Source of the DNA: a virus
Direction: 5' to 3' (one strand)
Length of the DNA: 31,581 nucleotides
UHGV virus genome: UHGV-1546770
Part shown: in pieces, positions 2,973 to 31,581 of the stretch
How the letters are laid out: the number at the start of each line of letters is the position of its first letter
How positions within the stretch are numbered: the first letter of the stretch is position 1
Notes under the pieces: generated by a model
The model's database searches: none
The model's input: only the letters and a program-made list of their open reading frames with translations
Told to the model about the DNA's origin: nothing
Translations under genes and position numbers: made by a program

Positions 2973-3031
2973 TTTTTCTTTTGTCCTTTCTTTTTTAAAT
3001 AATTTTTTATTGTCTTTTGACTTATGCTTGA

Positions 3032-3060
3032 ATTATACCATATGTTTTTCTGTTTGTCAA
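3032..3060 (-). promoter_or_regulatory. sigma70-type promoter, exact consensus TTGACA-N17-TATAAT
   Basis: Minus strand TTGACA aacagaaaaacatatgg TATAAT; tandem with the 3114-3142 promoter. Confidence 0.6.
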
Positions 3061-3113
3061 TATCTTTTTTCGTTTTTTTGAATCACATATTGACTTCTTT
3101 CAACTATGCTTGG

Positions 3114-3142
3114 ATTATATCACAATAATTTCTGTTTGTCAA
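3114..3142 (-). promoter_or_regulatory. sigma70-type promoter, exact consensus with TGn extended -10
   Basis: Minus strand TTGACA aacagaaattattgtga TATAAT; -35 overlaps the TGA stop of the 3139-3669 gene. Confidence 0.6.
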
Positions 3143-5692: not shown

Positions 5693-5950
5693 TTATTCTC
5701 CTTTTATCTCATATTTTTCTATTAGTTCGTTTAATTTACTTAAGCCATTCTTAGAAATTAAATCGTTTTCATAAAGGAAATCACATAATGCTTCAAGTTC
5801 AGAGACAGGGATGACCTCTATTGTAGGAAATTTATCAAGAAACGCTTTCTGCTTGAGGCAGTATTCTCTGATAACAGCAACATTCATATTTTCATTATCT
5901 TTATCAAATATGATTACTTGATTTACCACATCAGTATCAATTGGTCTCAT
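5693..5950 (-). CDS. hypothetical protein (85 aa)
   Basis: Intact ORF in series. Confidence 0.55.
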   Translation of the reverse strand: MRPIDTDVVNQVIIFDKDNENMNVAVIREYCLKQKAFLDKFPTIEVIPVSELEALCDFLYENDLISKNGLSKLNELIEKYEIKGE

Positions 5951-6734: not shown

Positions 6735-8282
6735 TTACATTTTCTTCTTAAGTACACCAATTTCTTTCCAAACATTTCCGTCCATATCTACTTCAAAGCA
6801 GATCAAATCATTCTTAGAACCAACTCTGTTCTTTACAATTCTTAATCCAACATAATTTTTATCATATCTTAAATCATGTTCTATTGGCTCTCCCCAAGTA
6901 TCATCTTCACAGACATATACATATTTTTGCTTGTCGTCTGCTGTTAGGTGTTTCCACATTTGCATTTGGTCAGTAACATGCATCATTCTCTTTGAACTTG
7001 CGATCTCTTGAGAATTTAAGTTTTCAATGGGGATATCATGCGCTGAATCTGTAAGCTGGAAAGTACAAATACAATACATTTTTGTTTCATGAATCCACTC
7101 TGTAATTTTTGTAGCAGTTGCGGCTAACTTTGCAAAGTCTTCAAGTCCAGAACATTTAAGTGTATCATATGCTACACCATCACACTTGTAAATTGTATTG
7201 GCTTTTTTGATTTCCATTTCAAGCACTTCATCTTCATAGCAAGAGCCGATATTCTTAAACAAGAATTTGCCACTACTTTCAGATTCAACCCATTGCATAA
7301 TTCGTTGCACCTTACGATATTCAGAAGATGTTTCATAAATTCTCTTTTTATAAGACTCTTCATCTTCTGTATACACACCATTATCATCCATTTGTCTATA
7401 GATATACTTTCCGTTATCATCTTTATATGATCCGAGTGCAATTTCTCTTTCTGGTTTATAAATATCTTTAATTCCATGTAGCTCTTGAATCTCTGGAGAA
7501 TTAATGCATGTAACTAAGAAGTTCAATTTAATGCTCTCTGCTGACATTTCGTTTGCAAGCAATAGAATTTTTTGCTTTTGAACAAGGACTAGATACGCAA
7601 TAAGATAAACGAGATTTCTGCCCTTACCACTATTGCTCAAAGCTCCTGTCATCAAAACGTTTCCGGGAAGTAATCCTCTATAATACTTCTGAAGATATGG
7701 CCATGGCCCAGCAACACCCATAGATGGCATGCACAAGAATTGGTCAATACATGAAACTGCGTTCTCTGTAAGAACAACAGGTTCATCAATTGCTTGTACT
7801 TTATTAGCTACCTTGTCAATTCGACCACGAACAATTCTACAAATATCATCTGGCGTTAATGCATTGAAATTCTTAATTGCCAAGATTTTTGATACGTCAT
7901 ATCCAGTCTCATTAAAAGCCCTTAGTAATGAAAACTTTTTAAATATTGAAAGATAATTCTTAATATCATGAGGGTCACTCATTGCCATTAATTCTTTAAT
8001 TGTCTTATATCCACCATACTGTCTGTATTGTTTAAAACGCTCTTTAGACATGCTACAGAACGTATTAATTTTCAATTCAGTAAAATCTTCAGAATATGAA
8101 ACATAATAATCAGAAAATAACTGATAAAAAAACTCACATGCCTTGTCCGAAAAATCATATTTTGGGACAATTGAGGTTCCATATGTTAGATATAATGTTG
8201 GCTCTTTATAAAATGATCCAACTACCAGCATTTCGGACTGGCTATTAGTTAATTCAAGTTCCATATTTTCACTTCCTATCAA
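6735..8282 (-). CDS. DnaB-like replicative helicase family protein (515 aa), divergent P-loop
   Basis: P-loop-like GALSNSGKGR, and C-terminal LRIVKNRVGSKNDLICFEVD resembling the DnaB-family KxRxG motif; sits in a replication-type gene neighbourhood. Confidence 0.5.
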   Translation of the reverse strand: MIGSENMELELTNSQSEMLVVGSFYKEPTLYLTYGTSIVPKYDFSDKACEFFYQLFSDYYVSYSEDFTELKINTFCSMSKERFKQYRQYGGYKTIKELMAMSDPHDIKNYLSIFKKFSLLRAFNETGYDVSKILAIKNFNALTPDDICRIVRGRIDKVANKVQAIDEPVVLTENAVSCIDQFLCMPSMGVAGPWPYLQKYYRGLLPGNVLMTGALSNSGKGRNLVYLIAYLVLVQKQKILLLANEMSAESIKLNFLVTCINSPEIQELHGIKDIYKPEREIALGSYKDDNGKYIYRQMDDNGVYTEDEESYKKRIYETSSEYRKVQRIMQWVESESSGKFLFKNIGSCYEDEVLEMEIKKANTIYKCDGVAYDTLKCSGLEDFAKLAATATKITEWIHETKMYCICTFQLTDSAHDIPIENLNSQEIASSKRMMHVTDQMQMWKHLTADDKQKYVYVCEDDTWGEPIEHDLRYDKNYVGLRIVKNRVGSKNDLICFEVDMDGNVWKEIGVLKKKM

Positions 8283-8944
8283 ATTAAGTCTTCCAAAAGA
8301 TCGCTAATATCCCCTAATCCATCATTCTGTTCAACTGCTTTAATTTTGCTATAATCAATGTTTACACTCTTTTTAACGCGACTTTGTTCCTCTTTCTCTT
8401 CTGCTTCTTTCTTTGCTTTTTCCTTGGCTTTTGAATATTTTACATAATTACTCATTAAAATAGCAAGATCATAGTTAACTCTTACCTCTCCGTCAATCAT
8501 CTTGCCATGATGCTTGTTCCATGCATTTGTTTTGTCTAGTTCTTTCTGATAGTCCTTCCACATATCAAACAATGTTTCTAAGTCAATTGGCTTGCACCGT
8601 TTTCCATTATATTTTCCAGATTGAATGTCTGCAATCATTGACCAAAAACGACGACTTAATGCCCCAACATCATAATGTGCAATCAAATACTCATTGAATT
8701 CGTCTTGCACAAAACGATGCATTAATTTCTTTTTTGCTTCTAATTCTAGTTGATCTAAATTCTGTAAGGCATCTGAATAAATGGACGAGTACCTGTTGTT
8801 TTTTAGTACTCGCCCATTACACATTGTTTTAAAACATTCAGTATGATAGCTTTTCTGTTTGTAAGAAACCATATGCATATCATTTTTTGTCAAAACAATA
8901 TCTTCCCCACAGAACGCGCATTTTCTAATTAAAGTGGCGCTCAT
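8279..8944 (-). CDS. hypothetical zinc-ribbon protein (221 aa), possible replication accessory factor
   Basis: N-terminal CAFCGED...HTEC ribbon; K/E-rich C-terminus; 4-nt overlap with the helicase gene start suggests coupling. Confidence 0.5.
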   Translation of the reverse strand: MSATLIRKCAFCGEDIVLTKNDMHMVSYKQKSYHTECFKTMCNGRVLKNNRYSSIYSDALQNLDQLELEAKKKLMHRFVQDEFNEYLIAHYDVGALSRRFWSMIADIQSGKYNGKRCKPIDLETLFDMWKDYQKELDKTNAWNKHHGKMIDGEVRVNYDLAILMSNYVKYSKAKEKAKKEAEEKEEQSRVKKSVNIDYSKIKAVEQNDGLGDISDLLEDLI

Positions 8945-8956
8945 TGTTATGTCTCC

Positions 8957-10033
8957 TTACTGTGAAACTACTTCAAGAATCTGGTTTAGAATAGCAATAT
9001 CTGTAACCTTGGCGAACTGGTCTGGAAGTCCTGCTTCCTTTATGGCAGCACGTTTGGCTTTCTTGTCTTCAGGAGAAAGAGATGACAGAACTCCCTTAAT
9101 TTCTGCCTTAAGGTTCTTGCATTCTTCGTCTTTTCTAATTTCCACATCCAACTCGTCTGTTTCCATTAGATCCTCTTTATGTGAATTATAATAGTCTTCC
9201 TTTTCTTTTTTCTCCTGCTTTGATTTGCTCTCAATATATTCGTCTGTTGCGTCATGAGACTTAATAGAGTTCTTAATTGCATCCTTGACAGTATCAATAT
9301 AATTCTTTGCAGAAACTTCTACTCTGTCAGCAATATCTTCAAATCTACCACCTGCATCAATATATCCATTTCCACGAAAGTACATCCATCTGCTAACACC
9401 ATCTACATGCCCATCAGTAATTTCTCTTTCAATAACACCCATCATACAAATATCTGCCTTGTTAGCAAAAATCGAATCATAATCTGTTGAAAGATTAGAT
9501 GTAAGCATCTGGTATTCATCGCCATTTTTCTCTTTAATATCCTTAATCTTAGTGTGCCCAATAAACACTAGACAGTACCCACTAGATTCTAGTCTGGTAA
9601 TAACGGAATTAATTAGCTCATCCACTTTTCTACGCCCAGCTCCATAACCTCCAAAACACGCATTAAATTCATGCTTGGTGCCAGACTTCTTATAGTCAAG
9701 ACGCACAATTTCCTTTTGAGCCATAGAAATCCATTCGTCAACGGTATCAAATGCAATAATAGAAAACGAATTTTCGTCCTTATTTTCTACTAGTTCGTCA
9801 ACGACTTCCATTAGTGTAGCCCAATCTGGGCAATCAGCAACCATTAGATTGTCAATAGCAAGATAACCTCTCTCATTTCCACAGCTAATCAATAGGCCAT
9901 GACTCATGTCGCCATATAGTTCTTTAATTAAATTTGCAAACAATGTAGTTTTGCCCCATTTTTTTGGTGCTCTCCAATAGTGGCGATAGTTAGTAATATC
10001 TACTGTTACCTCATTTTTCTTCCATAAAGCCAT
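8957..10033 (-). CDS. P-loop ATPase, RecA-like (Sak4/AAA_24-like)
   Basis: Walker A APKKWGKTT, Walker B-like SIIAFDTVDEW, and LVFIGHTK motif; K/E-rich C-terminal extension. Confidence 0.5.
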   Translation of the reverse strand: MALWKKNEVTVDITNYRHYWRAPKKWGKTTLFANLIKELYGDMSHGLLISCGNERGYLAIDNLMVADCPDWATLMEVVDELVENKDENSFSIIAFDTVDEWISMAQKEIVRLDYKKSGTKHEFNACFGGYGAGRRKVDELINSVITRLESSGYCLVFIGHTKIKDIKEKNGDEYQMLTSNLSTDYDSIFANKADICMMGVIEREITDGHVDGVSRWMYFRGNGYIDAGGRFEDIADRVEVSAKNYIDTVKDAIKNSIKSHDATDEYIESKSKQEKKEKEDYYNSHKEDLMETDELDVEIRKDEECKNLKAEIKGVLSSLSPEDKKAKRAAIKEAGLPDQFAKVTDIAILNQILEVVSQ

Positions 10034-10040
10034 AATAATA

Positions 10041-11051
10041 TCAGTCTCCTTTACCTTTTAAACTATTTATATATCTATCTAACTCTTCTTGTGTGATATA
10101 TCCTTTTTCAATTGCATCTTCCGCATACAACCAATGCAATGCCTCGCCTGTTTGTGGATGTTTATACGTATAATTTTGTTTACCTCTACAGCACTTTGTA
10201 ATAGAGCTTGGATCACATCCATATAAATTTTGTACTTCTTTTGCTCCCCAAAAAATTTGATTTAATTCTATACAATATATTCTTCTACATTTCCACCAAT
10301 TACTACCTTTACGAGAATCACTCATCTTTTTCTTTGCTTCTTCTGTGTGATGTTTCCCATACATTGGATGATTGCTTGGATTTATAAATCTTTCTTTTGC
10401 TTTTTCTGATAGATTTAATTTTTGTTCATCTGACAATTTTTTACCTAAACTGGGATGTTGTTTTCCTATCCATATATGTTTGCCTTTAGTTGTTGGATTT
10501 GCCCAATATAATTTATGTTTTTCATACCATTGTTTATATGTTTCTTCATCCATGCGTTCTTTTGGAGAAACTTTAAACTGTGGATTATTCTCGCCTACTA
10601 ATCCTGCTCTTCCATACATTGGATGATTATTTGGATCTGAAAGTCTTTCTTTTGCAGCTTTTGATATCTTTTTTCTTGTTTCTTTACTTGGAGTCCATCC
10701 TTGCGTTGTTCCTCCACCATAAACAAGATTATACCAATTGTTAGATTCAACAGCATTAAAGAAAACACTATAATTATATTCCATTTCATTTAATTCTTCT
10801 GCAGAATAAGCAATATCAATTACATTTCTTACAAAATTTTCTTTTCCATATTTGTCAATTGCTTGTTTAAATGCTGCACCACTACCAAGATATTCTTGCC
10901 AATTTCCATAGAATTTTCTTTGGCCTAAATATCTTTTGCCATCAATCAAATTCGTTGTGATATAAATAAATCCATATGGATCTTTTACTTCCGTATATGT
11001 TGTATCTTGTAGCCCATCAACGGAAGAATTCATTTCTTTTAATTCTTCCAT
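10041..11051 (-). CDS. GIY-YIG homing endonuclease with NUMOD3 repeats and NUMOD1-like HTH
   Basis: N-terminal YGFIYITTNLIDGKRYLGQ (GIY-YIG), repeated NHPMYG...K..S motifs, C-terminal ELNQIFWGAKEVQNLYGCDPSSITKCCRGK helix-turn-helix. Confidence 0.7.
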   Translation of the reverse strand: MEELKEMNSSVDGLQDTTYTEVKDPYGFIYITTNLIDGKRYLGQRKFYGNWQEYLGSGAAFKQAIDKYGKENFVRNVIDIAYSAEELNEMEYNYSVFFNAVESNNWYNLVYGGGTTQGWTPSKETRKKISKAAKERLSDPNNHPMYGRAGLVGENNPQFKVSPKERMDEETYKQWYEKHKLYWANPTTKGKHIWIGKQHPSLGKKLSDEQKLNLSEKAKERFINPSNHPMYGKHHTEEAKKKMSDSRKGSNWWKCRRIYCIELNQIFWGAKEVQNLYGCDPSSITKCCRGKQNYTYKHPQTGEALHWLYAEDAIEKGYITQEELDRYINSLKGKGD

Positions 11052-11124: not shown

Positions 11125-12201
11125 TTACCATGGCTCATCTTCGTCGTCAGATTCATCGTCGCCCCAATCATCATCCACATTGGATGTTGACTCTGCCTTA
11201 CCAGTGAAATCCTGTTCTGCTTTCTTTGATGCATTTACCTTCTTAATTGCCTCATCAATTGCCTTTTCAGTATATGTTTCTTTGTCAATAGTTGATGGCT
11301 TTGCACCTGTAATAATAAGTTCTCGATGAGTCGGTGCAAAAACTCTCTTATTGTCCATATCATTAGATTCGCCCCAGCAATCATCGTCTTCCTCATCATT
11401 CACGTCTTCAACATTATTAACAACATTGATGTGTCCATGAACCTGAATGGAATTATAAGGCTTTAGCCCACTACGCATCTGCTTTGCGAGTTTTGCATCT
11501 TCAATAATAAATTCAGCAGACTCAATAGAGTTATAATTCACAATCTTTGCATCTACCACAAATCGACCAGTTGGCTTGTCGTTTTCTCTTTCCTGATCAA
11601 TACCAACAAAAACAATTGTCTGCGTAAAATCATGAGCGGGAGCATAATCCTCCGCCTCAAAGTCAACATCATTCTGACATAGAGAAATTTGTGTTGGGAC
11701 AAACTTTGTGGTACGAGAGACTTCCCCATCTTTGTTAGTATAACTGCCAAATTCTAGATTTCCTTTAACAAAAACAGAATCACCATCCTGAAGATTCTCG
11801 CTAATGTATTCACATGCGTCATACTCAGTAAGCGTCTTGTTGTCGTTTCTTACCTTTCCGTTTTCGTCCTTGATCTTCTGAAGTCCAGTAAGCACACCAA
11901 TCATACGATAGCCTTCAGGAGCCTTCTTAATTCTGTCTTTCCATGCAATTGCCTTTGTATCAGTATTGCCAGTGTCTTTATCCTTCTTACTAAAATACAC
12001 CTTGTCACGCGGCATACCATTAAGCGTTGGGAAAATTGTCTTCTTGTCATCATACTCCACGCCAAAATTAATCATTCTGAACTCTTTGCCAGTTCTTGTC
12101 TGCTTTTCTACGTAGAAACTATCCTTTTCTACTCCGCTTACAATTCCTCTAACCTGAAAAGTTCCCTTGGTTTGTGGAAGTTCAAAAAGTTTGTTTGCCA
12201 T
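11125..12201 (-). CDS. putative ssDNA-binding protein (358 aa) with acidic C-terminal tail
   Basis: C-terminus DDDWGDDESDDEDEPW (acidic tail ending in an aromatic residue, as in SSB/gp2.5-type proteins); lies in the replication module. Confidence 0.4.
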   Translation of the reverse strand: MANKLFELPQTKGTFQVRGIVSGVEKDSFYVEKQTRTGKEFRMINFGVEYDDKKTIFPTLNGMPRDKVYFSKKDKDTGNTDTKAIAWKDRIKKAPEGYRMIGVLTGLQKIKDENGKVRNDNKTLTEYDACEYISENLQDGDSVFVKGNLEFGSYTNKDGEVSRTTKFVPTQISLCQNDVDFEAEDYAPAHDFTQTIVFVGIDQERENDKPTGRFVVDAKIVNYNSIESAEFIIEDAKLAKQMRSGLKPYNSIQVHGHINVVNNVEDVNDEEDDDCWGESNDMDNKRVFAPTHRELIITGAKPSTIDKETYTEKAIDEAIKKVNASKKAEQDFTGKAESTSNVDDDWGDDESDDEDEPW

Positions 12202-12253
12202 ATTTTATTAGTCTCCTTTTCCTATAATTTTGTATTGTTTAATAAAATAAAAA

Positions 12254-12463
12254 TTAATACTTATAATATCTTTCATCCATGACCGCATTATAATATGTGT
12301 ATTTGTCTAAAATGTCTTTCCCTATGTTCAACATATAATTTTCGTGCTCACAGCATGGACATCTCGCTTGTATATATAAATACTCAATGTAATTATTTTG
12401 TTCATCAACCTGAAAAATTGTTCCACATTTCTGGCATTGAACATTGACGCTCTTTGATTTCAT
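12254..12463 (-). CDS. hypothetical zinc-ribbon protein (69 aa)
   Basis: CQKCG...CPCCEHEN motifs; downstream of two consensus promoters. Confidence 0.5.
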   Translation of the reverse strand: MKSKSVNVQCQKCGTIFQVDEQNNYIEYLYIQARCPCCEHENYMLNIGKDILDKYTYYNAVMDERYYKY

Positions 12464-12532
12464 TCATCATTCATCCCCCTTTCTCAACAATTGAAAAGAC
12501 TATAATTTTATATTACATCTCATTACGATTGC

Positions 12533-12561
12533 ATTATACCATAACAATTGCGTCTTGTCAA
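12533..12561 (-). promoter_or_regulatory. sigma70-type promoter, exact consensus TTGACA-N17-TATAAT
   Basis: Minus strand TTGACA agacgcaattgttatgg TATAAT. Confidence 0.6.
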
Positions 12562-12735
12562 GTTTTTTATCGAAGATCGAAAAATTTTGTATTTCACTTT
12601 TACTTTATATTAATTCGCTGCTGATTATTGCGCAATTTCCATTTAACTCGATATTCGCAATTCCATTGTTCTTTTATTTTTTGTACCAATCATAACGTAT
12701 TGTGATTCTTACATTATAAATTTTTCGCTTATTTT

Positions 12736-12764
12736 ATTATACAGTACAAAATTATCATTGTCAA
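12736..12764 (-). promoter_or_regulatory. sigma70-type promoter, exact consensus TTGACA-N17-TATAAT
   Basis: Minus strand TTGACA atgataattttgtactg TATAAT, immediately downstream of the recombinase stop codon. Confidence 0.6.
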
Positions 12765-12770
12765 ATCTTA

Positions 12771-13745
12771 TTAAACCATATCATCCAAAATATTCGCGGC
12801 TTGCTGCTTTTTGTCTTTAGACATATTTGCATATCTCATAGTAGTAGCAATATTTTTATGATTAAGAACTGACGCACAAAGATAAATATCTCCAGTCTTT
12901 TCGTACAAATTAGTTGCACAAGAATGTCTCAACACATGTGGTGTAACATGCTTACTTGTCACATCCTTACTATATTTTTCTAGCATCACCCTAATGCCGT
13001 CTCTTGTAATTCTCTTTTTAAAGCTAGAAATAAACAAGGCATCTGTATTCGCCATGCTAAAATATTTGTTTCTATCCTGTAGCCACAATTCTAGCTGCTT
13101 CTTTACTCTATCGCCAAATAGAATATTACATGTTTTTCCTCTTTTTTCGATTACCTTAATAGTATTATTTTCGAAATCAATATCACCAATATCAATTTGC
13201 GTGATTGCAGATACACGCAACCCAGTAGTTAGTCCAAGCATAATAATGGCTAGATCCCTATTTTTCATCTTTTTGCTTGCAAGCTTATCAACATTTTCAA
13301 GAATCATTTGCATTTCTTTTTCTGTTAAATAAGCAACATCTGGTGTATCTTGCACTTTAGGACGTTCTGTTCTCTCCATTGGATTTTCTTTAATATAATC
13401 ATTTTCTTTAAGGAACCCAAAAAACGTATTCAATGCAGACCACTTTGTCGCACGAATACTATCACTTGTATTATAATGTCCATTGATAGTTTCTTTATTC
13501 TTCAATGCGGCAAAATATTTATTAATATCCAAAGGTGTTACCTTTTTATAAAAATCATTTGAGATTCTATTTTCATTAATAAATTCTGCAAATTCCTTCA
13601 CATATGCTACATATCTCTCAACTGTTGTATAAGATTTAGTTATACACATATAATAATAAAATTCAGAAAAAATTTTAGGAAGTCCTGTTAATTTTGCCTG
13701 CATCTTATTTGTAGCAACAATTTCCTTTTCCATTCTTCCTGTCAT
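12771..13745 (-). CDS. tyrosine recombinase / integrase (XerC/XerD-like)
   Basis: Catalytic-domain motifs TGLRVSA (Arg), HVLRHSCAT (His-x-x-Arg-His) and TMRYANM (Tyr) in the expected order. Confidence 0.85.
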   Translation of the reverse strand: MTGRMEKEIVATNKMQAKLTGLPKIFSEFYYYMCITKSYTTVERYVAYVKEFAEFINENRISNDFYKKVTPLDINKYFAALKNKETINGHYNTSDSIRATKWSALNTFFGFLKENDYIKENPMERTERPKVQDTPDVAYLTEKEMQMILENVDKLASKKMKNRDLAIIMLGLTTGLRVSAITQIDIGDIDFENNTIKVIEKRGKTCNILFGDRVKKQLELWLQDRNKYFSMANTDALFISSFKKRITRDGIRVMLEKYSKDVTSKHVTPHVLRHSCATNLYEKTGDIYLCASVLNHKNIATTMRYANMSKDKKQQAANILDDMV

Positions 13746-14509: not shown

Positions 14510-14538
14510 ATTATAACGCTATAATTTTGTTTTGTCAA
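14510..14538 (-). promoter_or_regulatory. sigma70-type promoter, exact consensus TTGACA-N17-TATAAT
   Basis: Minus strand TTGACA aaacaaaattatagcgt TATAAT; -35 overlaps the TGA stop of the methyltransferase gene. Confidence 0.6.
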
Positions 14539-15059
14539 GTATTTTGTTGAGTTTTCTTTACCCTCCATACGGGCGCGGATTTAGTTCCACCAACTCGCTC
14601 AACAGAATCAAACATCGAAAGCAAAATCTCCTCGATATCTGTTCCTTTTAGATCCATCTTTCGAGGGCTTTGAGGATAATTACAAACAAATTCTCCATTA
14701 TTTTCCATTACTAGTTTAATTTGATTCAATGTTTCAAAAAGCATTTGCAGAGAACTCTGCACATTAAGCACATTAGAAGCGAATACGATATCATACTGTC
14801 TATTCAGTGCAAATTTATCGAGTAGTACATCTCCATTGCCAACCCATAGATCATATGCTACCACATCAAATCCTTTGCTTAGAAGATATTTTGTACTAGT
14901 AGCTCCCTTCCCCGCACCAAAGTCGAGAATTGTTTTACTCTTATCCACATTACTTTCCACCCAAAGAGGAACTATTGCACGAATCTTTCCATCCTTAATA
15001 GCCGAAGCGCCTGCACTCCGACTAGTTGCTTTTGCAATTTTGATCTCCTGAGCTGTCAT
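14535..15059 (-). CDS. class I SAM-dependent methyltransferase (174 aa), substrate unknown
   Basis: Motif I ILDFGAGKGATS, acidic post-I residue in VVAYDL, and IVFASNVLNV block. Confidence 0.6.
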   Translation of the reverse strand: MTAQEIKIAKATSRSAGASAIKDGKIRAIVPLWVESNVDKSKTILDFGAGKGATSTKYLLSKGFDVVAYDLWVGNGDVLLDKFALNRQYDIVFASNVLNVQSSLQMLFETLNQIKLVMENNGEFVCNYPQSPRKMDLKGTDIEEILLSMFDSVERVGGTKSAPVWRVKKTQQNT

Positions 15060-17284: not shown

Positions 17285-17312
17285 ATTATATAATAATTTT
17301 ATATTCTGTTAA
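17285..17312 (-). promoter_or_regulatory. sigma70-type promoter (TTAACA-N16-TATAAT)
   Basis: Minus strand TTAACA gaatataaaattatta TATAAT directly after the terminator hairpin. Confidence 0.35.
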
Positions 17313-17343
17313 TAAAAGAGGCATAGATTTCTCTACGCCTCTT
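17309..17343 (-). terminator. putative intrinsic terminator
   Basis: 7-bp stem AAGAGGC/GCCTCTT followed on the minus strand by TTTTATT; downstream of 17354-17590. Confidence 0.45.
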
Positions 17344-17353
17344 GATATTTATT

Positions 17354-17590
17354 TTATTTAATTTTACTTACTGCTTCTTCTCTTGTTTTCCCGAAATTTG
17401 CTTCCTGAAGAATGCCAAGATAAGGGATGAATACCCAAATGTCATCATTATAATCACACCATTCAATAACTTTTTCTTTTAGAAGGTCTTCTACAGTTCC
17501 AACCAGTCCAAAACACACTTCCTTATCGGCAGTCCATACCTTACGAATGGTGCCATCGTAACCACGTTTCTTAAAAAATTTAAGTTCCAT
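17354..17590 (-). CDS. hypothetical protein (78 aa)
   Basis: Intact ORF in series. Confidence 0.5.
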   Translation of the reverse strand: MELKFFKKRGYDGTIRKVWTADKEVCFGLVGTVEDLLKEKVIEWCDYNDDIWVFIPYLGILQEANFGKTREEAVSKIK

Positions 17591-19162: not shown

Positions 19163-19180
19163 TTATTAATCTCCTTTCTA

Positions 19181-19212
19181 TTTTATAAAAGGGGCTTTGT
19201 TCAAGCCCCTTT
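19181..19212 (-). terminator. putative intrinsic terminator or attenuator hairpin
   Basis: Perfect 10-bp inverted repeat AAAGGGGCTT/AAGCCCCTTT with 5-nt loop, followed on the minus strand by TATAAAAT. Confidence 0.45.
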
Positions 19213-19231
19213 AAGAATAATTTTGTATTGT

Positions 19232-19912
19232 TTACCAGCTACTCACGTAATAAATAGCTTGCGTTTCAAAGTCAGTGATTGCAAGAACATTTTCAATAAT
19301 CTTAATGGTGTCAACAATATCGTTTACATAATACTCGTCGTAATCGCACCCTCCGAAAAAGAATCCATCACAACAAGGAAGCAACTCATCTGCAACACTT
19401 GCATCAATTACGACTTTGCCATCTTCATAAATCGGTTCCCATCCATTAGGAGTTCCCTTATCTCCGTTATGCACTTTCCCATAAGTCATTGTGCAAGAAT
19501 CAAGCACTGTTTTACAGACACCGAGAAGGTTTTCAAGGATCTCCTTTGTACACTCATGATGATAATCACAATCATCATCTCCGTCTTGAACGTTGGTTAC
19601 GAACCAATTATGAATCTGATTTGCTTTTCTCCAATATCCAACCTGCTCCATAATTCTGCTATATCCATACTTATGTTCAGTGTCCCAAGCGGAATAGCGT
19701 TTCTTATAGAAAGATTTATAAAATTCAATTACATCCTTGCCCGGAAGCTCGCTTTCATCAATACCGCACCATTCCTTAAATGTGCAGTCTGCGTATTTAC
19801 TTCCTTCTCTCTTTGCTTTCATCCAATCGAAATAATTTTCAATTGCACTTACCTCGCTTGCAGTAGTGTTTTTGTAACGAGGCATCCTATTGAGATACTG
19901 GTCAAGTCCCAT
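19232..19912 (-). CDS. hypothetical protein (226 aa)
   Basis: Intact ORF; plus-strand ORF 19223-19918 is its shadow. Confidence 0.6.
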   Translation of the reverse strand: MGLDQYLNRMPRYKNTTASEVSAIENYFDWMKAKREGSKYADCTFKEWCGIDESELPGKDVIEFYKSFYKKRYSAWDTEHKYGYSRIMEQVGYWRKANQIHNWFVTNVQDGDDDCDYHHECTKEILENLLGVCKTVLDSCTMTYGKVHNGDKGTPNGWEPIYEDGKVVIDASVADELLPCCDGFFFGGCDYDEYYVNDIVDTIKIIENVLAITDFETQAIYYVSSW

Positions 19913-20788: not shown

Positions 20789-20815
20789 TTGCCGACTTCT
20801 TTAATTTTGTTTTGT

Positions 20816-21388
20816 TTAAACTACAATCTTAAATCCACGACGTTCGGCTTCTGCAATTAGGTCATAATCTGAAATATCTTTAAGACTTCGAATACGCATT
20901 CCGTATTTAACGGTTACTACATTATCCTTGACATAAATCGTACCGAAATCATTTATGTCCTCTCCCTGAAACTCGATCTCTCCGTTACAGATATATCCGC
21001 TTGGAGCAATGAAATTATCAATCAGATACACAAGCCATTCTGCATAATTATAAAACTTATCTCCGCCATCCCATACCAAGTTTTCATCGTCATCAATCAT
21101 CCACTGACACCAAAGACTAGGCTGCGTTTTAGGAGGGGCATTATACCCTACAATTGAATCATCTACATCTTGCCCCAGAAATCCATTTCCGCCAACGAAG
21201 TACTCACCATCGACTCCAAGATTTCCATTGAAACAATTTTTATCCCAATCAGGGAAGATTTTCTTAATCTTTTCCACATCTCGCTTCATGCGACGAGTTG
21301 CACTAAATTTGTTGATGTAATTTTTAAGTTCATCAGCAATAGGCTTATTGAAAGACACGCTACCGTAGAAATCCGTAGAATAACCCAT
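20816..21388 (-). CDS. hypothetical protein (190 aa)
   Basis: Intact ORF; AGGAGG-type RBS. Confidence 0.55.
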   Translation of the reverse strand: MGYSTDFYGSVSFNKPIADELKNYINKFSATRRMKRDVEKIKKIFPDWDKNCFNGNLGVDGEYFVGGNGFLGQDVDDSIVGYNAPPKTQPSLWCQWMIDDDENLVWDGGDKFYNYAEWLVYLIDNFIAPSGYICNGEIEFQGEDINDFGTIYVKDNVVTVKYGMRIRSLKDISDYDLIAEAERRGFKIVV

Positions 21389-23994: not shown

Positions 23995-24105
23995 TATATA
24001 CCTCCTTTTCTTTGCAATATTTTTGTATTGTATAAGACAAGGTGCAAAAGCCTCATCTTCCTTAACGACTCTTATATCAAGAACAGATGTTTCTTATAAA
24101 TCATT

Positions 24106-25668: not shown

Positions 25669-25806
25669 TTAGATTTTTACCAGCGTGTCGGCAAGCTGGA
25701 TAGCAATACCTAAGATTGTTAAAATGAGAACAATAATCCCGTCTTTCCTGTCGTCATCTCCGAATAGCAGTACACAAGCAATGATGATAAGCAAAATAGC
25801 AATCAT
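25669..25806 (-). CDS. small single-pass membrane peptide (~45 aa; start trimmed from track ORF 25669-25893)
   Basis: Internal ATG preceded by GGAG; sequence MIAILLIIIACVLLFG...ILTILGIAIQLADTLVKI is almost entirely hydrophobic. Confidence 0.45.
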   Translation of the reverse strand: MIAILLIIIACVLLFGDDDRKDGIIVLILTILGIAIQLADTLVKI

Positions 25807-25951
25807 TTGTTTTACTCCATATACTTTTGTATTGTTTATTGTTTTTGTATTAATTTTCCATGTTATATTCGCATTTTTTGATAGTGGCTTCATTTACATT
25901 GCAAACTATACTGCTCAAAATTGAAATTATATTTTGCGTTCTATATACGCA

Positions 25952-26095
25952 TTAAATGATGCCACATGAACTTGCAATCATTGCAATAATTGCAAGGAAC
26001 AAGATGCCTCCGAGCAAGCTCCCGATACCAGATTTGGTAGCATCTTTTCCAAAAAGCAGTACACAAACAATAATGATTAGCAGAATAACAATCAT
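25952..26095 (-). CDS. small membrane peptide (~47 aa), paralog of 25669-25806; below the ORF-track cutoff
   Basis: GGAGGTAAAATCA before the ATG; MIVILLIIIVCVLLFGKDATKSG... resembles the neighbouring peptide; coordinates hand-counted. Confidence 0.4.
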   Translation of the reverse strand: MIVILLIIIVCVLLFGKDATKSGIGSLLGGILFLAIIAMIASSCGII

Positions 26096-26116
26096 TGATT
26101 TTACCTCCTTTTTTTA

Positions 26117-28884: not shown

Positions 28885-29343
28885 TTATCCGACCAATGCA
28901 CTGTAGCATCTGTCAAATCTTTCTTTATAGCTGTTAAGCTCTTCCTGAAGCTCTCTGTTCTTGAACTGAAGCATAGTCTTTTCCGTTTCAAGCTCGTCAT
29001 TTCTCATCATGGCAGCATCGTAATCTTCTCTTGACACACCGTTCCGTTTCATTTCAATGATACTTGCGGAAATAGCGGCTACATTATAGCCCATTTCAGA
29101 AATGTAACAGAACTGCTTTCCATTTCCTGTGTGATTATGTGAAGTGCCACCACAAGTTTTCTGTCTTCCAGCAATCTGATTAAGAAGGGACGAATAACTA
29201 ATGCCATAACAATTAGCCGCATCACGTGCCGACTTGAACACCTCACCAGTCGTGATGCACATGACCGCTTTTCCTTTGTGGATGTCTTTGTTTTCTGGGA
29301 TGATGTCGTACTTTGCGCGGCTAACAATAACGTTCTTTTTCAT
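28885..29343 (-). CDS. NUMOD1-like HTH DNA-binding protein with C-terminal coiled coil (152 aa)
   Basis: KAVMCITTGEVFKSARDAANCYGISYSSLLNQIAGRQKTCGG resembles the NUMOD1 module of homing endonucleases; no nuclease motif seen. Confidence 0.45.
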   Translation of the reverse strand: MKKNVIVSRAKYDIIPENKDIHKGKAVMCITTGEVFKSARDAANCYGISYSSLLNQIAGRQKTCGGTSHNHTGNGKQFCYISEMGYNVAAISASIIEMKRNGVSREDYDAAMMRNDELETEKTMLQFKNRELQEELNSYKERFDRCYSALVG

Positions 29344-29397
29344 GATGTAAATTCCCTTTCTGCCTTATAAGGCTATAATTTTGTGATGTATTCCTCT

Positions 29398-29643
29398 TTA
29401 AACTTCTTCAAATTCCTCGCAATCAGTAACTTCAATAGGAGTTACATCTTGCATATAATACTTTGAGTCGCCACAGTTGCAATAATAATGCTTTATCGCA
29501 TCCGTGTCCTTATTCTTGTTTGCCTCGTAAAAGGTCTCTCCAAAGCTCTTGCAGTCACCAAGATAACCACAATCTACACACTTTAAGCTCATTTTTCTTA
29601 CTCCTCCACTTGTTCTATGATGTTGAGTTGTTTGAAAATGCAC
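29398..29643 (-). CDS. hypothetical zinc-ribbon protein (81 aa)
   Basis: CVDCGYLGDC...CNCGD motifs. Confidence 0.5.
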   Translation of the reverse strand: MHFQTTQHHRTSGGVRKMSLKCVDCGYLGDCKSFGETFYEANKNKDTDAIKHYYCNCGDSKYYMQDVTPIEVTDCEEFEEV

Positions 29644-29783
29644 TCCAAATCTGCCTTTGGATATGTGTCTTTATACCAATACACAGCGCCTCGCTGCAAG
29701 TAGTAAGTCAAGGCACAGTTGATTAGCTGCGCCTCGTCTTTGTTAATGTTGAGCTCCATTTGCCTTACCTCACTCTTACACAA
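29598..29783 (-). CDS. hypothetical protein (61 aa)
   Basis: Intact ORF; overlaps the downstream gene by about 46 nt so the start is uncertain. Confidence 0.4.
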   Translation of the reverse strand: MCKSEVRQMELNINKDEAQLINCALTYYLQRGAVYWYKDTYPKADLECIFKQLNIIEQVEE

Positions 29784-29956
29784 AGTTCGTCATCATAGAA
29801 GCCGAAGGCAACAACCTCCTTTTCATAGACATTTTTATAAGACAAAGCAACCTCAACTTTGTCTCTAACAATCGGTTTAAGATTGTCGTCATTTACAACC
29901 AGAATGCCATTCCAATTGTCATAGAGATCCACAAAGTCACACAGTTTCATTTGCAT
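29765..29956 (-). CDS. hypothetical protein (63 aa)
   Basis: Intact ORF in series. Confidence 0.45.
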   Translation of the reverse strand: MQMKLCDFVDLYDNWNGILVVNDDNLKPIVRDKVEVALSYKNVYEKEVVAFGFYDDELCVRVR

Positions 29957-30240
29957 TACCTCGCTATTACATATTTTTCAAAGGGAAATTTTGCTCTATC
30001 ATCACACATGATGGTATAAGCGTTGATGCCTTTCAGATAAGGTTCTCTTTCTTTGACATCATCCCAATGGATGGTTTCCGTTCCGCCAAAAGCAAAAGCA
30101 AGTTCTGCCATAGGTTTATATCCATCTTTAAGATAGATATGAACCGCAATTATAGCACCATGTGTCATAGGATTATAGATTTCTCTTGTAGCGTTACAGT
30201 CCGTAAGGAACTGTTTCGCTTGGGCTTCATACTCAGTCAT
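29956..30240 (-). CDS. hypothetical protein (94 aa)
   Basis: Intact ORF in series. Confidence 0.5.
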   Translation of the reverse strand: MTEYEAQAKQFLTDCNATREIYNPMTHGAIIAVHIYLKDGYKPMAELAFAFGGTETIHWDDVKEREPYLKGINAYTIMCDDRAKFPFEKYVIAR

Positions 30241-30489
30241 TTATAATACCTCCATTTCCCTTAATACCGCTTTTGCGGCAGTAGTGATGTGGTCATCGTG
30301 ACAGTTGTATTTATCAAACCAGTCACAAACAGTTTCGATTGGGATAGTTGCACGAATGCAGTCCCATGCAAGTCTTGTGCCGAAGTCTTTGTAGTTGCCA
30401 GTTGCCTTGAGCTTTTCAGCATACTCAGGCAAGTTAGTGATCTTGCTGAAGCTTTCCCTTATGAAAGGGATTTCGTTTTTGAGTTTCAT
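30241..30489 (-). CDS. hypothetical protein (82 aa)
   Basis: AAGGAGGG RBS; immediately downstream of palindromic repeat copy 1. Confidence 0.5.
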   Translation of the reverse strand: MKLKNEIPFIRESFSKITNLPEYAEKLKATGNYKDFGTRLAWDCIRATIPIETVCDWFDKYNCHDDHITTAAKAVLREMEVL

Positions 30490-30496
30490 TTATTTC

Positions 30497-30575
30497 CCTC
30501 CTTTGTCATTTTGGCAAAGCCCTTAATGATACCCACGATAGATTCTAATCGTGGGCATGATAAAGGTTTCGCTTA
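30497..30575. repeat. palindrome-containing repeat element, copy 1
   Basis: gcaaagccc-taat-at ACCCACGAT n8 ATCGTGGGCAT ...aggtttcg; shares conserved flanks and an 8-9 bp inverted repeat with copy 2. Confidence 0.5.
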
Positions 30576-30770
30576 TTCAGTTCTCCATTCACCAACGAGA
30601 TTTCCGTTGCTATCAAAGAGGAATCCATTGCGATATCCGCATGTGATTTTGGCAGGGATTGTGCGCAAGATTTTTTCCAGTTCATTTGCGAGTGCATAGT
30701 TGTCCATGAATGCATCTTTGCTTTCGCTTTTGAATGCATCATTGCTGGTGTAGATTTTTACTTCAAACAT
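30573..30770 (-). CDS. hypothetical protein (65 aa)
   Basis: Protein-like composition; preferred over overlapping ORF 30545-30742. Confidence 0.45.
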   Translation of the reverse strand: MFEVKIYTSNDAFKSESKDAFMDNYALANELEKILRTIPAKITCGYRNGFLFDSNGNLVGEWRTE

Positions 30771-30773
30771 TAT

Positions 30774-30953
30774 TTACTTTCCCTTCTTTTCCATTTCTAC
30801 TGCAATATATGACATTGCAATTGCGTTGGACAGTGAAATGATGATACCGAGAACTGCGAAGAATGGAGTGATTGTTGCGCATCTCCATGCAAGCACCAAT
30901 GTCAGAGATACGGCGGCACTCAGTGCAGCCATGCAAATGCAGATATTTTTCAT
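30774..30953 (-). CDS. small membrane protein (~59 aa; start trimmed from track ORF 30774-30995)
   Basis: Internal ATG preceded by AAAAGGAGAAGGCAAA; two hydrophobic segments. Confidence 0.45.
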   Translation of the reverse strand: MKNICICMAALSAAVSLTLVLAWRCATITPFFAVLGIIISLSNAIAMSYIAVEMEKKGK

Positions 30954-30972
30954 TTTGCCTTCTCCTTTTCGC

Positions 30973-31125
30973 TTACTTGTCGAGCCAATTAGCAATCAAG
31001 CTATGGCAAATATTGTCCATCTGGATTTCGCTTGTGCAGCGTTTCAGTTTTGCCTTTGTTCGTTCCGTAACAGGAACCCCAAAATCTTCAAGCAGTTTCA
31101 GTTTCTCTTTGTAATAGGCTTTCAT
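30973..31125 (-). CDS. hypothetical protein (~50 aa; start trimmed from track ORF 30973-31176)
   Basis: Internal ATG preceded by AAGGAG; downstream of palindromic repeat copy 2. Confidence 0.4.
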   Translation of the reverse strand: MKAYYKEKLKLLEDFGVPVTERTKAKLKRCTSEIQMDNICHSLIANWLDK

Positions 31126-31149
31126 TATGTGAAACTCCTTTCTCTTGAT

Positions 31150-31230
31150 GTGTGCAAAGCCCATAATAATACCCACGAGTTTTCGCTCGTGGGCATTGGT
31201 TATAGGTTTCGATTACCGGAACATCCCAAT
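31150..31230. repeat. palindrome-containing repeat element, copy 2
   Basis: gcaaagcccataataat ACCCACGAG n6 CTCGTGGGCAT ...aggtttcg; followed on the minus strand by TATTAT and an RBS. Confidence 0.5.
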
Positions 31231-31581
31231 TCCGTACTTTTCAGTCAGTCCCGCTTTTCGCTGTAGCTTGCCCTTTACGCTCAACTGACACGGTTTTCAA
31301 TGGACTTTCGTCCCCACTTGCTATGACTAGAACCATCTTATGGGCAATAATCTTAATCAAAAAACACTCGCAAGTGCTCACTTCTAGCATTTTGCCCATA
31401 AAGCGAATATGTTTGTTGCACATATTCAAGCCCTAAGAGTCTAAGCCACTCTCACTCTTTGCTCTGTTGATATTCTTCCACCGTCAACAGTCGGAGACTC
31501 GGACTAATGCGGCAACTTGGTTCAGTGTGTTCACACCTATCCACTCACGCCACGTGGAGGCGTTGCCATGTGAGCGCGGGG

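Follow-up and report, generated by a model that had tools for sequence, protein, structure and literature searches.

Repeated intercistronic RNA hairpins in the early genes of an uncultured phage group, candidate signals for RNase III processing

The right end of UHGV virus genome UHGV-1546770, analysed here as one stretch of 31,581 nucleotides (the window), harbours two copies of a conserved block which, including its flanks, folds as one irregular sense-strand RNA hairpin of ~60 nt with 22-24 bp. The copies very probably are functional RNA structures of the sense strand. In this large phage they separate its first genes. The hairpins most likely represent a new family, outside Rfam, of a signal of known kind, here seen in a phage group new for it. 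By analogy with known phage systems we propose, with a probability of about 0.6, that they serve a polycistronic early mRNA as signals for processing by RNase III and for stability.

Anatomy of the two copies in the window

Copy A is located at positions 30514-30572 and copy B at 31154-31212, both on the minus (gene-sense) strand. A sequence-only reading had placed two copies of a palindromic element here, and both were indeed found. The intervals given for them pointed to the right sites but were too wide, that of copy A including the downstream ribosome binding site (RBS) and that of copy B an unrelated small hairpin (31217-31234) upstream of the element. On the plus strand the arms read CCCACGAT/ATCGTGGG at 30532-30555 and CCCACGAG/CTCGTGGG at 31172-31193. 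The pattern CCCACGA-N4-12-TCGTGGG has exactly 2 matches in the window versus 0.00 expected from 100 shuffles. For the 3' flank GGGTATYATTAWGGGCTTTGC there are likewise exactly 2 matches with up to 3 mismatches permitted, while 0 were expected. A search of the whole window revealed no copies beyond A and B. Alignment of the two copies showed that their likeness extends past the hairpin, from TAA(G/T)CGAAACCT through GGGCTTTGC, and that the difference at the innermost stem pair, T-A to G-C, is compensatory.

Folding of the minus-strand RNA confirmed that the conserved block forms a hairpin (z about -5 to -6), and when all 80-nt folds of the window's minus strand are ranked by stability, the copies come first and fourth. 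From the base upwards the hairpin consists of a lower stem, a middle stem, an internal loop of 2 nt on one side and 3 nt on the other, and an upper stem of 11-12 bp. Three models were used to score such structures, a narrow one (R1), one of the broad family (R2) and one built from six T7 sites only (R3). Copy A has a minimum free energy (MFE) of -28.1 kcal/mol on the sense strand (z -5.86) versus -23.1 kcal/mol on the antisense strand, and scores 93.5 bits with R1 and 75.9 bits with R2. In its lower stem GCGAA (30568-30572) pairs with UUUGC (30514-30518); A30567 and C30519 are single-base bulges, and the pairs of this stem covary among relatives (CG/UA/UG/AU/GC). The middle stem is formed by CCUUUA (30561-30566) and UAAGGG (30520-30525), with a conserved U.G inside. 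Pair 14-60 of the alignment, U-A in copy A, is reversed to A-U in copy B; the family shows AU 22 times, UA 8 times and GU 3 times. The internal loop, as placed by the fold and the family counts, has UC on its 5' side (30559-30560) and CAU, letters of the T7 type, on its 3' side (30526-30528). The upper stem-loop (30529-30558) comprises AUGCCCACGAU, the loop UAGAAUCU and AUCGUGGGUAU; it has 11 bp including one G.U, and for each of the 11 the family contains double changes that compensate one another.

Copy B has an MFE of -28.3 kcal/mol (z -4.87) and scores 79.2 bits with R1 and 65.0 bits with R2. Its upper stem-loop (31169-31196) is made up of AUGCCCACGAG, the loop CGAAAA and CUCGUGGGUAU; relatives display a GAAA tetraloop with a C-G closing pair. 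The 3' internal-loop triplet of copy B is UAU (31166-31168) in the frame of the family alignment, and in the MFE fold two of its bases pair with A31196-A31197. Among 57 distinct copies the 5' loop letters are UC in 33 and UA in 11, and most of these copies combine UC or UA with CAU, UAU or AAU on the 3' side.

At the gathering score, Rfam found only skipping-rope RNA and tRNAs in the window and no family for the element. A permissive search (E up to 5) of 30400-31581 gave no credible match, nor did Rfam match the related loci L001 and L002. BLASTN of 29000-31581 against cultured phage genomes gave no match, so that there is no annotated relative to draw on.

Covariation and the folding strand

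About 57 distinct relatives of the hairpin were found in contigs of uncultured phages that measure up to ~170 kb, with 2-5 per locus in the stretches of up to ~15 kb that were covered, all on one strand. The upper-stem sequence varies freely among them while the pairing is kept. When 33 diverse copies were aligned with MAFFT, blind to structure, 95.7% of cells paired versus 74.6% in shuffles, and changes on both sides were found in 19 of the 22 pairs. The covariation score of 0.668 (versus 0.236) was reached by 0 of 500 shuffles, and controls with slid pairing gave at most 0.15. Across the family G.U cells outnumber A.C cells by 103 to 8 (several relatives do have an A.C mismatch in the upper stem), and GNRA tetraloops occur 15 times versus 2 loops of the reverse-complement type. 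The G.U excess and the GNRA loops therefore identify the sense RNA as the strand that folds.

These results bear on the sequence-only reading, in which the palindrome upstream of genes, with a -10-like hexamer (TATCAT or TATTAT) adjoining it, was seen as a DNA operator for a phage repressor, lying over a promoter. Such an operator is now highly improbable. A double-stranded DNA site would lack the strand asymmetry of 103 G.U to 8 A.C. Relatives replace the palindrome sequence wholesale and keep its pairing, the distance between the 5' flank and the hexamer varies with the length of stem and loop, and the imperfect 'palindrome' reaches about 60 nt with bulges. An operator over a sigma70 promoter would call for -35 and -10 hexamers spaced by 16-18 nt and for a dyad conserved in sequence as well as in pairing. 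At neither copy is there a sigma70-type promoter on the minus strand, nor a -35 element. A promoter scan of this strand from 31581 to about 25600 gave nothing better than 10 of 12 matching positions and nothing at the copies, whereas in the real promoters of this phage all 12 positions agree with TTGACA-17-TATAAT. Both hexamers and an AAGGAG-type RBS are present as had been claimed, but the hexamers are part of the hairpin itself, in its 3' arm and internal loop. As for the suggested binding partner, the 28885-29343 protein only matches a PHROG of unassigned function, and no link to the element was found. The fallback offered at the time, an RNA hairpin or attenuator, proved right in kind, the element being a structured part of the sense transcript. 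A DNA hairpin promoter of the N4 type was also dropped from consideration: the stems are far longer here, and the G.U pairs and GNRA loops indicate RNA. A giant virion RNA polymerase was not encountered among the scanned ORFs.

The middle stem and internal loop, CCUAUAUC ... YAUUAUGGG, are strongly conserved in sequence. This conservation exceeds the known needs of RNase III, and therefore another factor might be the reader. The hairpin could then be a site for a phage-encoded RNA-binding protein or endoribonuclease, for instance a translational repressor or shut-off factor of early genes. Indeed, CCUAUAUC and YAUUAUGGGCUU are retained where the upper stem is wholly replaced. Furthermore, several genomes have an identical T-to-C change in the 3' arm of both their copies, which could mean co-evolution with a reader, or gene conversion. 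However, Pfam and PHROG searches of 40 ORFs in the window yielded no RNase III, no RNA-binding protein and no nuclease candidate. The sites of T7 and SPO1 are similarly conserved internally without such a factor, and the hairpin, lying 10-25 nt upstream of the Shine-Dalgarno sequence, leaves that sequence unoccluded. A dedicated phage factor is considered quite unlikely.

By helicase, the nearest cultured relative is Geobacillus virus E3 (31.5% identity), and the host is probably a member of the Bacillota rather than E. coli. A pattern scan of genome contigs gave nearly all chance matches; 1 of 80 loci, on a MAG contig, was confirmed, and it does not indicate the host.

Gene setting and transcription signals

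Copy A starts 1 nt past the TAA (30575-30573) of a 65-aa ORF and ends 10 nt before the AAGGAGG RBS of an 82-aa ORF (30241-30489, minus strand), which lies directly 3' of it. Copy B follows a TAA (31215-31213) that is the remnant of a truncated upstream ORF, intact in the related locus L002 where it encodes 162 aa. From the end of copy B it is 13 nt to the AAAGGAG RBS of a 50-aa ORF (ATG 31125-31123). Between the two hairpins three small ORFs of 50, 59 and 65 aa are found on the minus strand (30573-31125). Neither these three nor the 82-aa ORF has a Pfam match, and Pfam and PHROG together assigned no function to the seven small early ORFs. The 59-aa product is hydrophobic in appearance.

The same arrangement is seen throughout the family. 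At 53 of 64 distinct sites the hairpin starts at most 10 nt from where an ORF with 40 or more codons stops, and a Shine-Dalgarno sequence with start codon follows it at 54. A good promoter follows at only 1-2 of the 64, and the consensus sigma70 promoters of relatives are located upstream. With no strong promoter match on the minus strand as far as about 25600, and none at the copies, the downstream genes must therefore be reached by reading through both hairpins. We infer that the early genes around the hairpins are co-transcribed as a polycistronic mRNA.

A weak or factor-dependent terminator or attenuator, grading the expression of the early operon either alone or beside processing, is an unlikely alternative on this evidence, though several observations speak for it. 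Here RNA polymerase would pause, and be released in part, where the GC-rich upper stem gives way to a U-rich stretch. Many divergent copies combine the stem with U-rich UUUUAUUAU or UUUCAUUAU, and some divergent relatives are borderline for the terminator criterion. A terminator followed by a promoter is the classic order, and both the hairpin at 10699-10763 of L002 and a T7-like site in L073 directly precede consensus promoters. In the window a related-looking, terminator-like hairpin at 17302-17357 is likewise followed by a promoter, and a true terminator at 19180-19218 scored 12.1 bits with the T7-based model R3. However, intrinsic terminators of this phage have a perfect GC stem followed by a clean U run, UUUUAU or UUAUUUUUU, whereas past the GC part copies A and B carry only UAUCAUUA and UAUUAUUA, and a terminator scan of the minus strand called neither. 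Termination as the main function of these two copies was rejected on these grounds. The outer stems covary as well, even though they lie 3' of the supposed U tract and would be left untranscribed at termination. Moreover, 62 of the 64 sites have no promoter behind them, so that the genes there need read-through.

The hairpins also coincide with differences in gene content. One and the same hairpin variant is found behind three different upstream genes (L004, L005 and L008), genes and one hairpin that L002 has are missing from the window upstream of copy B, and a deletion in L003 ends inside copy B. Such observations would fit a recombination module in which short patches of homology shuffle small early genes, as in PeSL cassettes. 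PeSL cassettes of T4-type phages likewise are repeated stem-loops around small early genes of unassigned function; the region is variable, and the repeats delimit where genes have been gained or lost. They consist of a strong sigma70 promoter and an efficient terminator (PMC2839356, PMC4122927), while here a promoter is absent at 62 of 64 sites, a clean U tract is lacking and the covarying helix is extended. Compensatory changes, G.U bias, GNRA loops and a fixed internal loop are needless for patches of homology. Recombination as the function of the element is thus very unlikely, and gene shuffling at the hairpins is more likely a by-product.

Comparison with known RNase III sites and proposed role

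Among known signals the RNase III sites of phage T7 provide a close parallel in design. Substrates of E. coli RNase III typically span two helical turns, and internal loops confine the enzyme to a single bond, so that a protective hairpin remains at the 3' end (PMC1540722). In T7 the early precursor has five cut sites (PMC4858673). Both the T7 sites and the present family have a 2/3-nt internal loop, AAG...CUU closing pairs, a lower stem, about two helical turns in all, and an upper stem of about 10-12 bp that is often capped by GNRA. Both are intercistronic and lie in the sense transcript of a polycistronic early mRNA made by the host polymerase, which for the present family is presumed. In particular, R0.3, R0.5, R1.1, R4.7 and R18.5 resemble the family in the order UC, AAGG, a ~10-bp stem, CCUU and UAU or CAU. 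R4.7 has the loop letters UC/CAU of copy A, the other four have UC/UAU, and R1 is a looser variant (UU/AAU). The lower half differs, reading CCUAUA/UAUGGG plus GCGAA/UUUGC here and GAUA.AC/GAU.AUC in T7, and copies A and B start the upper stem with AUGC where the T7 sites have AAGG.

R3 was trained on R0.3, R0.5, R1, R1.1, R4.7 and R18.5; R3.8, R6.5 and R13 were left out, the coordinates used for them giving no bubble-type fold. When R3 was run on 95 kb of family loci, 7 of its 17 matches were sense-strand family members (best 27.0 bits, E 2.7e-4). It also revealed a new T7-like site in L073 (3417-3469; 32.4 bits, E 8e-6). Copies A and B themselves stayed below its listing threshold (not matched at E up to 10). 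Conversely, R2 matched R1.1 (E 0.47) and R0.3 (E 8.3) in the T7 genome, both non-significant, and R1 found nothing relevant there.

In the Bacillus phages SP82 and SPO1, early-mRNA sites for Bs-RNase III were reportedly described by Panganiban & Whiteley 1983 and Mitra & Bechhofer 1994 (cited in PMC4838370 and PMC1935012). The early 'host-takeover' region of SPO1 (L043) contains six intercistronic hairpins, at 5786-5855, 7096-7165, 11801-11870, 12226-12295, 12426-12495 and 12729-12778, built as GUUGC, UA, G[10 bp]C, NAU and GGAGCC. Following a secondary citation (PMC3896407), these presumably are the published RNase III sites. In SPO1 as in the present family, intercistronic hairpins that are nearly identical occur several times in the early part of a large (~130-160 kb), AT-rich phage of Gram-positive type, with a UA 2-nt / NAU 3-nt internal loop, a 10-bp upper stem, and a purine-rich, Shine-Dalgarno-like sequence near the predicted new 5' end. 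The targets in SP82, which contain internal loops, receive a single cut on their downstream side (PMC1935012). The hairpin at 3404-3460 of L098 and similar variants share GUUGCU(C/A)GUGUCCAC...CAUGGAGC with the SPO1 hairpins, and in some variants 15 of 16 and 8 of 8 flanking bases are identical to those of the SPO1 57/56 hairpin. Flanks of this kind were found only in L098 3404-3460, L035 2068-2139 and L035 1737-1787. The main family type, including copies A and B, has flanks unlike those of SPO1: the six SPO1 hairpins have the consensus GUUGCUAG ... NAUGGAGCC, copies A and B instead CCUUUAUC ... CAUUAAGGG. Neither R1 nor R2 found anything significant in SPO1.

The antitermination RNAs nut (boxA/boxB) of phage lambda and put of HK022 also are repeated structures that act in cis and lie close to where early operons begin. 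The lambda boxB is a 15-nt hairpin accompanied by boxA and put consists of two stem-loops, each occurring once per operon. Here, in contrast, single irregular hairpins of ~23 bp occur 2-5 times per operon, at every second to fourth gene boundary, and no boxA-like motif was seen. With anatomy and copy number differing, a nut- or put-like element was dropped.

The proposed role of the hairpins follows that of the T7 and SP82/SPO1 sites. Host RNase III would bind the helix and introduce a single nick on the 3' side of the internal loop. In T7 the cuts reportedly fall on the last base of the 3' loop triplet (Dunn & Studier 1983). The cleavage products of R1.1, 47 and 13 nt in length (PMC4858673), agree with a cut at the end of this triplet. 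Purely by analogy, cuts are predicted at U30526/U30525 in copy A and at U31166/U31165 in copy B. The upstream piece of mRNA would thereby keep a protective hairpin at its 3' end, and the downstream piece would start about 20 nt ahead of a strong Shine-Dalgarno sequence. In this way the early transcript may be divided, like those of T7 and SP82/SPO1, into pieces that are each stable and translatable on their own.

Phage RNase III processing signals have so far come mainly from T7-like phages, lambda and SP82/SPO1. If the proposed role is confirmed, a well-defined RNA family backed by strong covariation and absent from Rfam would join this short list, and an uncultured group of ~150-kb phages would be seen to organise its first transcripts in the same way. 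The finding opens no new kind of biology. In practice, the motif shows which end of these genomes is the early, host-takeover one and delimits single early cistrons, and as a compact natural 'insulator' the hairpin is of the type used in synthetic operons.

T7, SPO1 and the present clade have the loop letters UC/UA and NAU in common. It may be speculated, rather tentatively, that these letters, a capped stem of 10-12 bp and an outer helix form a portable 'single-nick' code for bacterial RNase III to which very different phages converged or which they exchanged. The clade would then combine at least three flavours per operon (main, T7-like and SPO1-like), and the repeats possibly act as joints for the recombination of early genes. 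The design as such recurs, in sites either validated or presumed, in T7 of E. coli, in SPO1/SP82 of Bacillus and in this uncultured clade.

Structure and setting of the two hairpins

Every long ORF of the window is encoded by the minus strand, and the region around the hairpins is hence read on that strand. Alignment of copy A (30514-30572, minus) with copy B (31154-31212, minus), both at refined limits, revealed a common block, TAA(G/T)CGAAACCU(U/A)UA ... AUGCCCACGA-loop-UCGUGGGUAU(C/U)AUUA(A/U)GGGCUUUGC, that runs continuously through stem and flanks. Exactly two matches in 31.6 kb, against zero expected, were found both for the stem pattern and for the pattern of the 3' flank, so the duplicated element reported from the sequence alone is real. 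A search of the whole window with two covariance models, one with filters off, gave no further convincing copy. Folding of the minus-strand RNA yielded one long irregular hairpin per copy, of -28 kcal/mol each (z -5.9 for copy A and -4.9 for copy B), while the antisense strand of both folds more weakly. Among the 80-nt folds on the minus strand of the window, the copies rank first and fourth in stability.

In the sense-strand fold both copies have a lower stem GCGAA/UUUGC with a one-base bulge on either side, followed by a middle stem (CCUUUA/UAAGGG in copy A, CCUAUA(A)/(U)UAUGGG in copy B) in which the A/U difference between the copies is compensated. Above it lie an internal loop, with UC on its 5' side and CAU or UAU on its 3' side (UC / CAU in copy A), and an upper stem of 11-12 bp closed by a loop of 6-8 nt. 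The flanks noticed in the sequence-only reading are indeed conserved between the copies, but they are the outer parts of the same helix; its -10-like hexamers are present, but consist of the end of the upper stem plus a loop triplet. Plain intrinsic terminators of the phage (19182-19210 and 6612-6640) are unlike the hairpins: in them a U run follows a perfect GC stem.

Copy A starts 1 base past the TAA that closes a 65-aa ORF and stops 10 nt ahead of the AAGGAGG of an 82-aa ORF. Copy B is preceded by what is left of a gene whose intact form (162 aa) occurs in the related phage contig L002, and is followed by the first of three small ORFs. A promoter scan of the minus strand from the window end to about 25600 gave no match above 10/12 and none at copy A or B, whereas promoters elsewhere in the phage (TTGACA-17-TATAAT) matched at 12/12 positions. 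Since no strong promoter is found at or near the hairpins, both should belong to a single long early transcript initiated upstream of the window. In L002 the counterpart region is preceded by a 2.2-kb AT-rich non-coding stretch, and promoters lie at 8711 and 10757. The window, itself a fragment of a large phage, harbours DnaB-like, Sak4-like and SSB-like genes, a GIY-YIG endonuclease, a tyrosine recombinase, seven tRNAs and many small unknown genes. The closest cultured relative of its helicase is that of Geobacillus virus E3 (31.5% identity), and no nucleotide match to cultured phages was found.

A conserved family of intercistronic RNA hairpins

Exact-pattern scans of IMG/VR followed by covariance-model searches yielded 85 sense-strand matches (57 distinct sequences) from 16 metagenome accessions, on contigs of up to ~170 kb, many of them 130-170 kb. 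Each locus carries 2-5 copies, always on the same strand and within a few kb. A 596-Gb collection of bacterial and archaeal genomes gave only one credible copy, on a 15-kb MAG contig, and the element thus appears confined to phage. Rfam holds no family for the hairpin, which is a genuine, well supported conserved RNA family new to that database.

Covariation was assessed in a MAFFT alignment of 33 copies built without reference to structure. Standard pairs filled 95.7% of cells, against 74.6% in shuffles; both-sided changes occurred at 19 of the 22 pairs (150 cells); and the covariation score was 0.668 versus 0.236, a value reached by none of 500 shuffles. Sliding the partner by 1-3 columns reduced pairing to 30-49%. 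In divergent copies the upper stem is wholly replaced with pairing kept (AAGCGCCUAAGG...CUUAGGCGUUU, GAAGGGGUUGGC...CAGCCCCUUC, GAGCCCUGGAGC...UUCCAGGGCUU). Across the family 103 G.U cells were counted against 8 A.C cells, and GNRA tetraloops occur in 15 of the 57 copies against 2 with loops of the reverse-complement type. Such asymmetry would be absent from a double-stranded DNA site and reversed in antisense RNA; the element is therefore a structured part of the sense-strand RNA. The favoured proposal of the sequence-only reading, a repressor operator over a promoter, is contradicted by this G.U excess, by pairing that survives replacement of the stem sequence and by the lack of a promoter at the copies. 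Its fallback, an RNA hairpin, agrees with the sense-strand fold and the covariation. A recombination module of the PeSL type fits in part, namely the gene gains and losses at hairpins, but not the RNA-specific constraints.

The element is intercistronic: 53 of 64 distinct sites start at most 10 nt from the stop codon that closes an ORF of 40 codons or longer, and 54 are followed by a Shine-Dalgarno sequence and start codon, usually within 1-15 nt. A promoter cassette was rejected, as a good promoter directly follows only 1-2 of the 64. For U-rich relatives weak termination may operate alongside processing, although it would leave both the covarying outer stems and the promoter-less downstream genes without explanation.

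Sequence, as opposed to pairing, is conserved in the middle stem and internal loop (5' AAACCUAUAU(C/A), 3' (C/U/A)AU-UAUGGGCUU). A phage-encoded RNA-binding factor that reads the hairpin would explain this conservation, but no candidate was found among the window ORFs scanned. In copies A and/or B of six loci (L003, L017, L019, L002, L014, L009) the 3' arm has UCGCGGG instead of UCGUGGG, giving an A.C mismatch. Three of these genomes (L003, L017 and L019) have the substitution in both of their copies, suggesting that the copies undergo gene conversion or co-vary with a reader.

Likeness to RNase III sites of T7 and presumed sites of SPO1

The T7 sites R0.3, R0.5, R1, R1.1, R4.7 and R18.5, folded here, share the plan ...CUC AAGG-[~10 bp stem, often GCAA loop]-CCUU UAU|GAU..., beside which the family consensus reads ...AUC AAGC-[10-12 bp, often GAAA]-GCUU YAU UAUGGG.... 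Their internal loops have UC on the 5' side and UAU on the 3' side (CAU in R4.7, as in copy A), R1 being a looser variant (UU / AAU). The cut coordinates, reportedly 890, 1468, 3138, 5887, 13892 and 36856 (Dunn & Studier 1983), each fall on the last base of the 3' triplet. Cleavage of a 60-nt R1.1 RNA into products of 47 + 13 nt (PMC4858673) agrees with a cut at that position.

On the 6.2-kb T7 early region the broad covariance model of the family (R2) gave five matches, including R1.1 (E 0.47) and R0.3 (E 8.3), in the correct register but not significant. Conversely, a model built solely from the six T7 sites (R3), run without filters on 95 kb of family loci, gave 17 matches, seven of which fall on the sense strand of family members (best 27.0 bits, E 2.7e-4; E-values are rough owing to shortened calibration). 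Its top match was a previously unseen site, L073 3417-3469 (+), GCUCAAGGGCAUC...GGUGCCCUUUAUGG (32.4 bits, E 8e-6). This site is nearly identical in design and letters to T7 R0.3, lies directly past the stop of a 262-aa ORF and ahead of a TTGACA-17-TATAAT promoter, and shares its operon with two main-type copies. The chief weak point of the T7 link for the window is that R3 retrieved neither copy A nor copy B from these loci.

In the terminal host-takeover region of SPO1 a stability scan with further checks detected six intercistronic hairpins, with consensus (A)GGUUGC-UA-G[10 bp]C-NAU-GGAGCC and the same design as the family (internal loop UA / NAU, 10-bp upper stem). They are located at 5786-5855(+), 7096-7165(+), 11801-11870(-), 12226-12295(-), 12426-12495(-) and 12729-12778(-), between genes 43/44, 45/46, 60/59, 59/58, 58/57 and 57/56, and are without annotation in the RefSeq record. 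RNase III cleavage sites have been reported for this region (Stewart 1998, as cited in PMC3896407), and in SP82 the homologous targets have been characterised as hairpins with an internal loop and a single cut, on the downstream side (PMC1935012; references in PMC4838370). The six hairpins are presumably RNase III sites of the SP82 type. SPO1-like flanks occur in three variant family members, for example L098 3404-3460 (GUUGCUC-GUGUCCAC...-CAUGGAGC). Together with the T7-like site of L073, these variants place main, T7-like and SPO1-like types in one clade, and the three look like the same device. The two-by-three loop design recurs in T7, SPO1 and this clade.

Most likely the role of the hairpins is a classic one, as signals for processing by RNase III and for RNA stability within the early operon of a phage. 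Host RNA polymerase would make a long early transcript, in which the internal loop would restrict cleavage to one bond on the 3' side, predicted at U30526|U30525 in copy A and U31166|U31165 in copy B. Such a single cut leaves a 3' hairpin that shields RNA from 3' exonucleases (PMC1540722), and the upstream RNA would be protected in this way. The downstream RNA would start ~20 nt ahead of a strong Shine-Dalgarno sequence, an arrangement reported to have had a stabilising effect on the downstream SP82 product in B. subtilis (Hue 1995, as cited in PMC7509114).

Other elements of the window

Upstream of copy B, the non-coding leader 31235-31470 (minus) contains additional small hairpins: AGAGU-GGCUUAG-ACUCU, which covaries with AGAGC-...-GCUCU in L002, GGAC-GAAA-GUCC and CUGUUGA...UCAACAG. 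Relative to L002 the window here lacks ~0.8 kb; two ORFs, a promoter and a third copy of the hairpin are among the missing parts. A conserved ~70-nt non-coding element, GCUCACAUGGYAACGCCUCCAC..UGGCGUGAGUGGAUAGGUG....CACUGAACYAAGUURCC, occupies the very end of the window (31510-31581, minus); it has no match in Rfam, and homologues occur in L002 (10091-10160), L008 and L006. Compensatory changes (GGCAAC/GUUGCC vs GGUAAC/GUUACC; GUGUG/CACAC vs GUGCA/UGCAC) were found, and the helix order suggests a pseudoknot. In L002 and L008 the RBS and ATG of a 56-aa ORF lie at most ~12 nt past the homologue.

The hairpin 17302-17357 (minus; AUAUC-AAGAGGCGUAGA-GAAA-UCUAUGCCUCUU-UUAUUA; R2 19.8 bits, E ~0.01) has the UC / AAG..CUU / UUAU frame in common with the family, but its only outer stem is AU-rich and its tail U-rich. 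A TTAACA-16-TATAAT promoter comes next, and the hairpin may be a terminator that is either akin to the family or converging on it.

The motif AAACAATACAAAATTAT is matched 13 times when up to 3 mismatches are allowed (0.9 expected), 12 times on the minus strand, and usually lies shortly upstream of a gene start (12224-12240, 19217-19233, 20801-20817, 25821-25837, 24017-24033 and others). One inverted copy, 12739-12755 (+), lies in the spacer of a consensus promoter adjoining the tyrosine-recombinase gene (12771-13745) and produces a 27-nt inverted repeat (12224-12250 / 12729-12755). For a DNA-level regulatory site, either an operator or a phage-specific promoter, this motif is a more likely candidate than the hairpins. 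A conserved cassette of ~45 nt, containing sigma70 promoters that are perfect or nearly so (TTGACA-17-TATAAT, in some cases with an extended -10 TG), occurs on the minus strand at 2587-2643, 3016-3060, 3098-3142, 12517-12573, 12736-12764 and 14510-14550; these are probably strong host-polymerase promoters of the phage.

The GIY-YIG/NUMOD3 homing-endonuclease gene (10041-11051, -) sits as an insertion between two replication genes, one Sak4-like (8957-10033) and one SSB-like (11125-12201). Its C-terminal part shares phrog_4538 with the 152-aa ORF 28885-29343; this ORF had been put forward as an HTH protein but matches only that PHROG, of unknown function. Two small ORFs lying side by side, 25669-25893 and 25952-26095, contain a 62-nt direct repeat (25754-25815 / 26043-26104, 82% identity), a tandem duplication of a gene whose small product is probably a membrane protein. 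The gene array has at its downstream end a cluster of seven tRNA genes (2-1290, -; Thr, Ile, two Tyr including an odd AUA anticodon call, Met and two Leu), which encloses a skipping-rope RNA at 246-325 (-; RF02924, 77.9 bits, E 1.7e-17).
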